Of a DNA stretch of 64,000 nucleotides, positions 44,841-44,892 are shown in pieces. The notes under the pieces were generated by a model. It was not told where the DNA came from, searched no databases, and saw only the letters and a program-made list of their open reading frames with translations. Source of the DNA: Lytechinus pictus (taxonomy: Eukaryota); the NCBI RefSeq assembly GCF_037042905.1, contig NC_087251.1:19408001-19472000 (forward strand). The letters are read 5' to 3'. The translations under genes and the position numbers were made by a program. How positions within the stretch are numbered: position 1 is the stretch's first letter; each line of letters begins with the position of its first letter.

Positions 44841-44892
44841 CTGCCATCGGTATTTTCAGCTGCTGGGGTTTGTCCTGCTTCCGGCGTGACAT
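44841..44892 (-). CDS. First coding exon of a C2H2 zinc-finger repressor with N-terminal NuRD-binding motif (SALL/spalt- or BCL11-like; FOG and ZNF423/521 not excluded)
   Basis: ATG TCA CGC CGG AAG CAG GAC AAA CCC CAG CAG CTG AAA ATA CCG ATG GCA G|gtaaga = MSRRKQDKPQQLKIPMA. Matches MSRRKQxxPxxL. Short phase-1 first exon as in vertebrate family members; aaatATG context; inside a CpG-rich promoter. Confidence 0.88.

Follow-up and report, generated by a model that had tools for sequence, protein, structure and literature searches.

We observed that 52 bases on the minus strand of Lytechinus pictus DNA (positions 44841..44892 of the window, the whole stretch of 64,000 nucleotides analyzed here) very likely form the ordinary first coding exon of a sea urchin Bcl11 gene. 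From sequence comparison, we put the probability of this reading at roughly 0.93. The coding part of the exon consists of 17 codons plus 1 nt and encodes the MSRRKQxxP NuRD-interaction motif. Its 17 residues are the same as residues 1-17 of the BCL11 proteins of Diadema setosum (XP_072165303.1; P0001) and D. antillarum (XP_071498976.1, RefSeq name BCL11A-like; P0003). This identity supports the original prediction that the exon is the 5' end of an MSRRKQxxP zinc-finger gene. The same N-terminal peptide is already in RefSeq for Diadema, and the motif, its RBBP4 structure and its presence in BCL11 are established.

Sequence and predicted splice donor of the exon

Read on the minus strand from 44892 to 44841, the exon has an ATG at 44892, 17 codons (MSRRKQDKPQQLKIPMA) and a single G at 44841, followed by GTAAGA from 44840, exactly as had been predicted from the letters of the window. 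When the frame was read on into the intron, it reached a stop after 23 codons. On the other side, an in-frame TGA lies at 44934-44932, 14 codons 5' of the ATG, with no ATG between the two, and we therefore took the Met as the true start. The open frame spans 36 codons, and the exon's ATG is the single ATG in it. The pattern M[SP]RRKQxxP occurred once in the six frames of the window, in the exon, compared to a chance expectation of 5e-5 (third-order Markov model, both strands). RRKQxxP occupies residues 3-9 after the initiator Met, the placement that defines the N-terminal NuRD interaction motif. The exon peptide alone had no match in PDB, ESM Atlas or Pfam.

The predicted 5' splice donor GTAAGA (44835..44840, minus strand) received the top score on its strand. 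With a heuristic matrix of splice frequencies, CAG/GTAAGA ranked first of the 3479 minus-strand GT sites counted, and 3 of 3297 plus-strand sites scored above it. We also observed short upstream ATG frames of 16, 3 and 6 codons at 45099-45029 (minus strand), 155-207 nt before the main ATG. These are possible uORFs if transcription begins further upstream.

Predicted position and phase of the exon boundary

We assessed the boundary using orthologous gene models, not raw reads. Residue 18 of Diadema BCL11 is Val, and because all Val codons start with G, this residue fits the final phase-1 G of the exon. Amphioxus BCL11 isoforms have 17 residues in common, followed by Pro or Gln; since the codons for Pro and Gln can have only their first base in common, the amphioxus split is phase 1 in codon 18. 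The first common residue in the Acanthaster and Asterias isoform pairs is likewise residue 18; the partial models of Apostichopus and Branchiostoma start at residue 19. The length of 52 nt, the canonical donor and the codon-18 boundary in the orthologue models support the claim that this is a short phase-1 exon. A 52-nt phase-1 first exon looks common to invertebrate deuterostomes in these sequences.

Metagenome contigs yielded 13 loci with the motif, comprising 9 different sequences, when searched with a looser DNA pattern, and 0 loci with a tight one. A canonical phase-1 donor was present 40-82 nt after the ATG in all of them (13/13). Locus L009 holds the BCL11A 2-16 peptide as printed in the available portion of 10.1101/2025.06.23.660971. 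In L009 and L012, the vertebrate-type BCL11A loci, the first exon is 55 nt long compared to 52 nt in the window. Locus L010 has C2H2 fingers (SALL-like) 2.4-3.5 kb downstream of a short phase-1 first exon. Separately, the BCL11 search brought up a protein (P0291) that lacks the strict finger signature and agrees with loci L003, L007 and L013 in its first 13 residues; this is probably a BCL11 that has diverged, with a phase-1 first exon of 43 nt.

Sequence upstream of the exon

A stretch of ~70 nt at 44905..44974 (minus strand) appears to be conserved between the window and sea cucumber Bcl11. Two sea cucumber BCL11 models (P0136, P0139) begin with N-terminal extensions that, when back-translated, matched window DNA 5' of the ATG. 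Over the 45 nt at 44949-44905, a segment chosen after the tblastn match had been seen, we counted at least 6 nt differences from the best back-translation for Holothuria and at least 8 nt for Apostichopus, back-translation giving a lower bound on the differences. Of 127,912 places compared, this segment had the fewest differences (mean 24, sd 2.7). The 12 nt at 44974-44963 showed 0 differences from the back-translation, and such places numbered 2 of 127,978. In the window, the upstream stretch is interrupted by the in-frame TGA and by a 1-nt shift, so it is non-coding here, and we read it as a conserved 5' element. The sea cucumber extensions of 46-48 residues are probably annotated leader sequence.

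The sequence CCGCCATTTT occurs once in the window, at 44974-44965 (minus strand), and we take it to be a YY1-like site. When the upstream element was compared with the DNA that precedes the motif at 9 other loci, none (0/9) beat their shuffles, one of the nine having just 18 nt. Folding of the element as RNA gave nothing unusual (z 0.35). We found no report of conserved noncoding elements of BCL11 in echinoderms in the literature searched, which mostly lay outside subscription journals and excluded supplements.

The putative first intron and the CpG landscape

The putative first intron (1..44840, minus strand) runs off the window. We searched the window for later parts of the gene, with peptide scans that omit one 200-base stretch. 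The CCHC (ZF0) and BCL11-type C2H2 fingers are present in the Diadema orthologue, and profile searches of the window found no exons encoding them. A Diadema profile of residues 18-160 reached a best E of 2 against 4023 six-frame window peptides; as a positive control for this profile, spiked sea-star pieces scored 8e-11 and 2e-10. The best E in the window was 0.49 for a profile of the later part of the protein and 4.3 for another profile. With the exon set aside, tblastn against the window gave nothing better than E 0.9, and a match at 38340-38290 (E 2.2) was inspected and rejected as chance. A C2H2 pattern scan of the window returned 2 matches, both unconvincing, and heuristic phase-1 exon scans returned 7 weak candidates when the cut-offs were relaxed and 0 when they were strict. 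Among 144 window frames (29 + 115) searched with Pfam, reverse transcriptase alone was above the cut-off. Because the 44.8 kb left of the exon yielded no later Bcl11 exon, the first intron is likely at least 44.8 kb long, which agrees with the prediction that the next exon is more than 44 kb away. Judged from the orthologues only, the exon likely joins Bcl11 exons left of the window. A long inverted repeat lies inside the putative intron at 2042-2705 and 3125-3773 (arms of ~660 nt, 83% identity) and is possibly a foldback or MITE-like element.

We also assessed the CpG content around the exon. The observed/expected CpG ratio was 1.09 at 44000-47000, 0.30 at 1-43999 and 0.75 at 47001-64000. TpG (1.30) and CpA (1.32) were in excess at 1-43999, and GpC was at 0.99. 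The change point lies near 44125, ~700 nt into the putative intron, and the sequence is CpG-depleted from ~44100 leftward. The zone around the exon (44000..47000) is likely a promoter region. Its GC content is just 0.40, and we therefore describe it as a CpG-undepleted zone bordering a depleted domain, not as a GC-rich island. The pattern would fit a promoter zone free of methylation next to a methylated gene body, and the CpG step, together with the excess of TpG and CpA at its left, suggests that the body of a developmental transcription factor gene is methylated in the germline. In Ciona, body methylation accompanies broad expression, according to the available part of PMC3827831.

It is improbable that the Bcl11 first exon and promoter seen here are a detached or duplicated copy, or the product of an assembly join, unconnected to the rest of the gene. 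Such a copy would account for the lack of any other Bcl11 exon found in 44.8 kb, and D. antillarum has two models, one of them without the N-terminus. However, the locus retains an intact peptide, donor and upstream element, and the CpG-depleted domain begins just downstream of the exon in the direction of transcription and reaches the window edge. We favor the reading of an ordinary first exon of Bcl11.

Several other features were observed in the surroundings. A second CpG-dense patch at 46001-46500 (34 CpG in 500 nt, GC 0.48) lies beside a CT-rich tract and contains a 138-codon minus-strand frame with no Pfam match; it is a possible upstream promoter or non-coding exon. A non-LTR retrotransposon remnant occupies 51023-52900 (minus strand) and includes a 457-codon frame at 51026-52396 (Pfam RVT_1, E 6e-31), with overlapping upstream frames suggesting frameshifts. 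Rfam returned 0 matches on 32000-64000. A sigma-70 promoter scan was disregarded as not applicable to animal DNA.

Family identity

A search with a two-row profile that included the window peptide gave 1 match among 3 candidates, the D. setosum protein XP_072165303.1. By tblastn, the exon matched Diadema BCL11 with an E of 8e-5 at 17/17 identity. Pfam placed CCHC_BCL-11A at residues 40-65 of XP_072165303.1 (E 4e-10), and the best PDB matches of this protein were BCL11A fingers (E 5e-47), with SALL3 at 2e-12. The Diadema protein with this N-terminus thus has the BCL11 CCHC family and fingers nearer to BCL11A than to the SALL type. In a tree of 19 C-terminal regions, in which two outgroup rows sit on very long branches and the root is unsure, XP_072165303.1 grouped with other echinoid and ambulacrarian (echinoderm, hemichordate) BCL11 proteins (support 99/98 and 96/96).

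We ranked 297 proteins by residue identity to the exon peptide. This set was gathered by BCL11 queries and is accordingly biased to BCL11; it is without echinoid SALL, FOG or ZNF423 N-termini. The Diadema pair were the sole full matches (17/17), followed by Saccoglossus BCL11 (12) and sea star and sea cucumber BCL11 (11), so that full identity refers to a single echinoid genus. RRKQxxP was present in 101 of the 297 proteins. The match to BCL11 orthologues extends past the shared motif and includes the non-motif part LKIPMA. A search of 1.84 billion representatives with XP_072165303.1 returned no further echinoid N-terminus. Because of the 17/17 identity to Diadema proteins with BCL11 CCHC and C2H2 fingers, we assign the exon to BCL11, not SALL. 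The original prediction had named SALL2 and BCL11A as closest; the BCL11 part of it is upheld, but SALL2 finds no support.

These data also bear on whether the exon could be the first exon of another MSRRKQxxP gene, of the SALL/spalt, FOG/ZFPM or ZNF423/521 kind. The motif is common to these families, as described in the available text of PMC3020727, and a short phase-1 first exon is also present at the L010 locus, which has SALL-like fingers. All 17 residues, the non-motif LKIPMA included, match BCL11 proteins, however, and sea cucumber BCL11 models match the DNA upstream of the ATG, which makes an origin in one of these families very improbable. A chance open frame in non-coding DNA would fit the length of just 36 codons and the lack of a Pfam match, but for practical purposes it is refuted: the exon matches annotated proteins at 17/17 identity (tblastn E 8e-5), the expectation for the motif alone is 5e-5, and the donor and the conserved upstream DNA speak against it as well.

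BCL11 is a known bilaterian family (PMC9170682, PMC2889900) with two paralogues in chordates only (PMC9170682), and a review (PMC7854572) mentions that sea urchins express a Fancl-Bcl11a syntenic lincRNA; each source was available in part. We found no description of a sea-urchin Bcl11 N-terminus in the partly accessible literature searched, and nothing on this exon in the accessible portions of 10.1101/303537, PMC13250551 and 10.64898/2026.09.20.752982.

Gene-model coverage and alternative N-termini

Among 13 named echinoderm models, the motif was at the start in 4, behind an extension of 46-48 residues in 2, and missing in 7. The sea-urchin RefSeq models retrieved were evenly split, with the exon present in 2/4 and absent in 2/4. 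The two models without it, L. variegatus XP_041469021.1 (P0006) and D. antillarum XP_071511901.1 (P0002), lack both the NuRD motif and the CCHC finger and are short by about 140-155 N-terminal residues. The L. variegatus model starts with an F/L/S-rich run that, from its sequence, looks like intron read-through. The exon had been described as hidden and liable to be missed by automated models. This was true of two of the four sea-urchin models, but the peptide is already in RefSeq for the two Diadema models. We consider this mainly an annotation point: truncated models could wrongly suggest that the NuRD peptide and the CCHC finger were lost in sea urchins. The exon shows that the NuRD peptide is present, and a specialist would find no surprise in this. 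The conserved upstream element and a sea-star alternative N-terminus are modest leads.

The sea-star N-terminus lacks the motif, is common to Asterias and Acanthaster (RefSeq models P0015, P0125, P0007) and shares its point of junction with the motif exon. We observed no convincing copy of it in the window (best E 0.08, plus strand). No paper on a BCL11 alternative first exon in connection with NuRD was found, in a search that mostly lay outside subscription journals and excluded supplements. A tentative and rather doubtful idea is that echinoderm Bcl11 toggles NuRD recruitment by first-exon choice, with the motif exon behind the conserved ~70-nt 5' element (YY1-like site) and a second first exon giving a motif-less isoform. 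If this were true, the 44.8-kb methylated-looking intron would leave room for an alternative promoter; none was found in the window.

Discussion

The predicted function of the exon peptide follows from what has been reported for the motif, here as given in the available portions of the papers cited in this paragraph. In the RbAp48-FOG-1 structure, most contacts are made by Arg3, Arg4, Lys5 and Gln6, and the pair of residues that follows RRKQ points to solvent (PMC3020727). FOG-1, SALL1/4, BCL11A, ZNF296 and ZNF827 have N-terminal RRKQxxP as their consensus (PMC11602157), and NuRD contacts have been reported for 19 of 23 human proteins with RRKQxxP (10.1101/2025.06.23.660971). The motif is required for Bcl11b-NuRD binding in vivo (PMC8079813) and is functional in Drosophila Ush-B (PMC7891773).

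Because the sea-urchin peptide has all the contact residues, we predict that it docks on RBBP4/7 and brings NuRD to BCL11 targets. Transcription would begin in the CpG-undepleted zone around the exon. Phase-1 splicing at 44841, across an intron of at least 44.8 kb, would then join the exon to one with the CCHC (ZF0) finger left of the window. As in the FOG-1 structure, Arg3-Arg4-Lys5-Gln6 of the protein would dock on the acidic top face of RBBP4/7, and NuRD would be brought to sites bound by the BCL11 C2H2 fingers, leading to target repression. By analogy with vertebrates, we expect the exon peptide to recruit NuRD, a gene-silencing complex.

Among known systems, the closest is Diadema BCL11 (XP_072165303.1, XP_071498976.1), in which residues 1-17 are identical to those of the exon and Val 18 fits its phase-1 G. 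We saw no difference between the two in this comparison, which was made at the protein level. Vertebrate BCL11A/BCL11B (CTIP1/CTIP2) have the N-terminal MSRRKQxxP in common with the exon, and, like the matched Diadema orthologue, they carry the CCHC finger and C-terminal C2H2 fingers that closely resemble those of the orthologue. Vertebrate BCL11A differs from the exon peptide at residues 7 and 11-17. The Drosophila Ush isoforms with and without the motif, as described in the available text of PMC7891773, are a precedent for alternative N-termini with which the NuRD peptide is gained or lost. Ush belongs to the FOG proteins, whereas the sea-star case consists of BCL11 gene models, and we found no motif-less exon of this kind in the window. 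More broadly, the exon has the exact RRKQxxP at residues 3-9 in common with the FOG repression motif, or N-terminal NuRD interaction motif, of FOG-1, SALL1/4, ZNF827, ZNF296 and Drosophila Ush-B. It differs from these in that the host protein is BCL11 and that binding is predicted from sequence.
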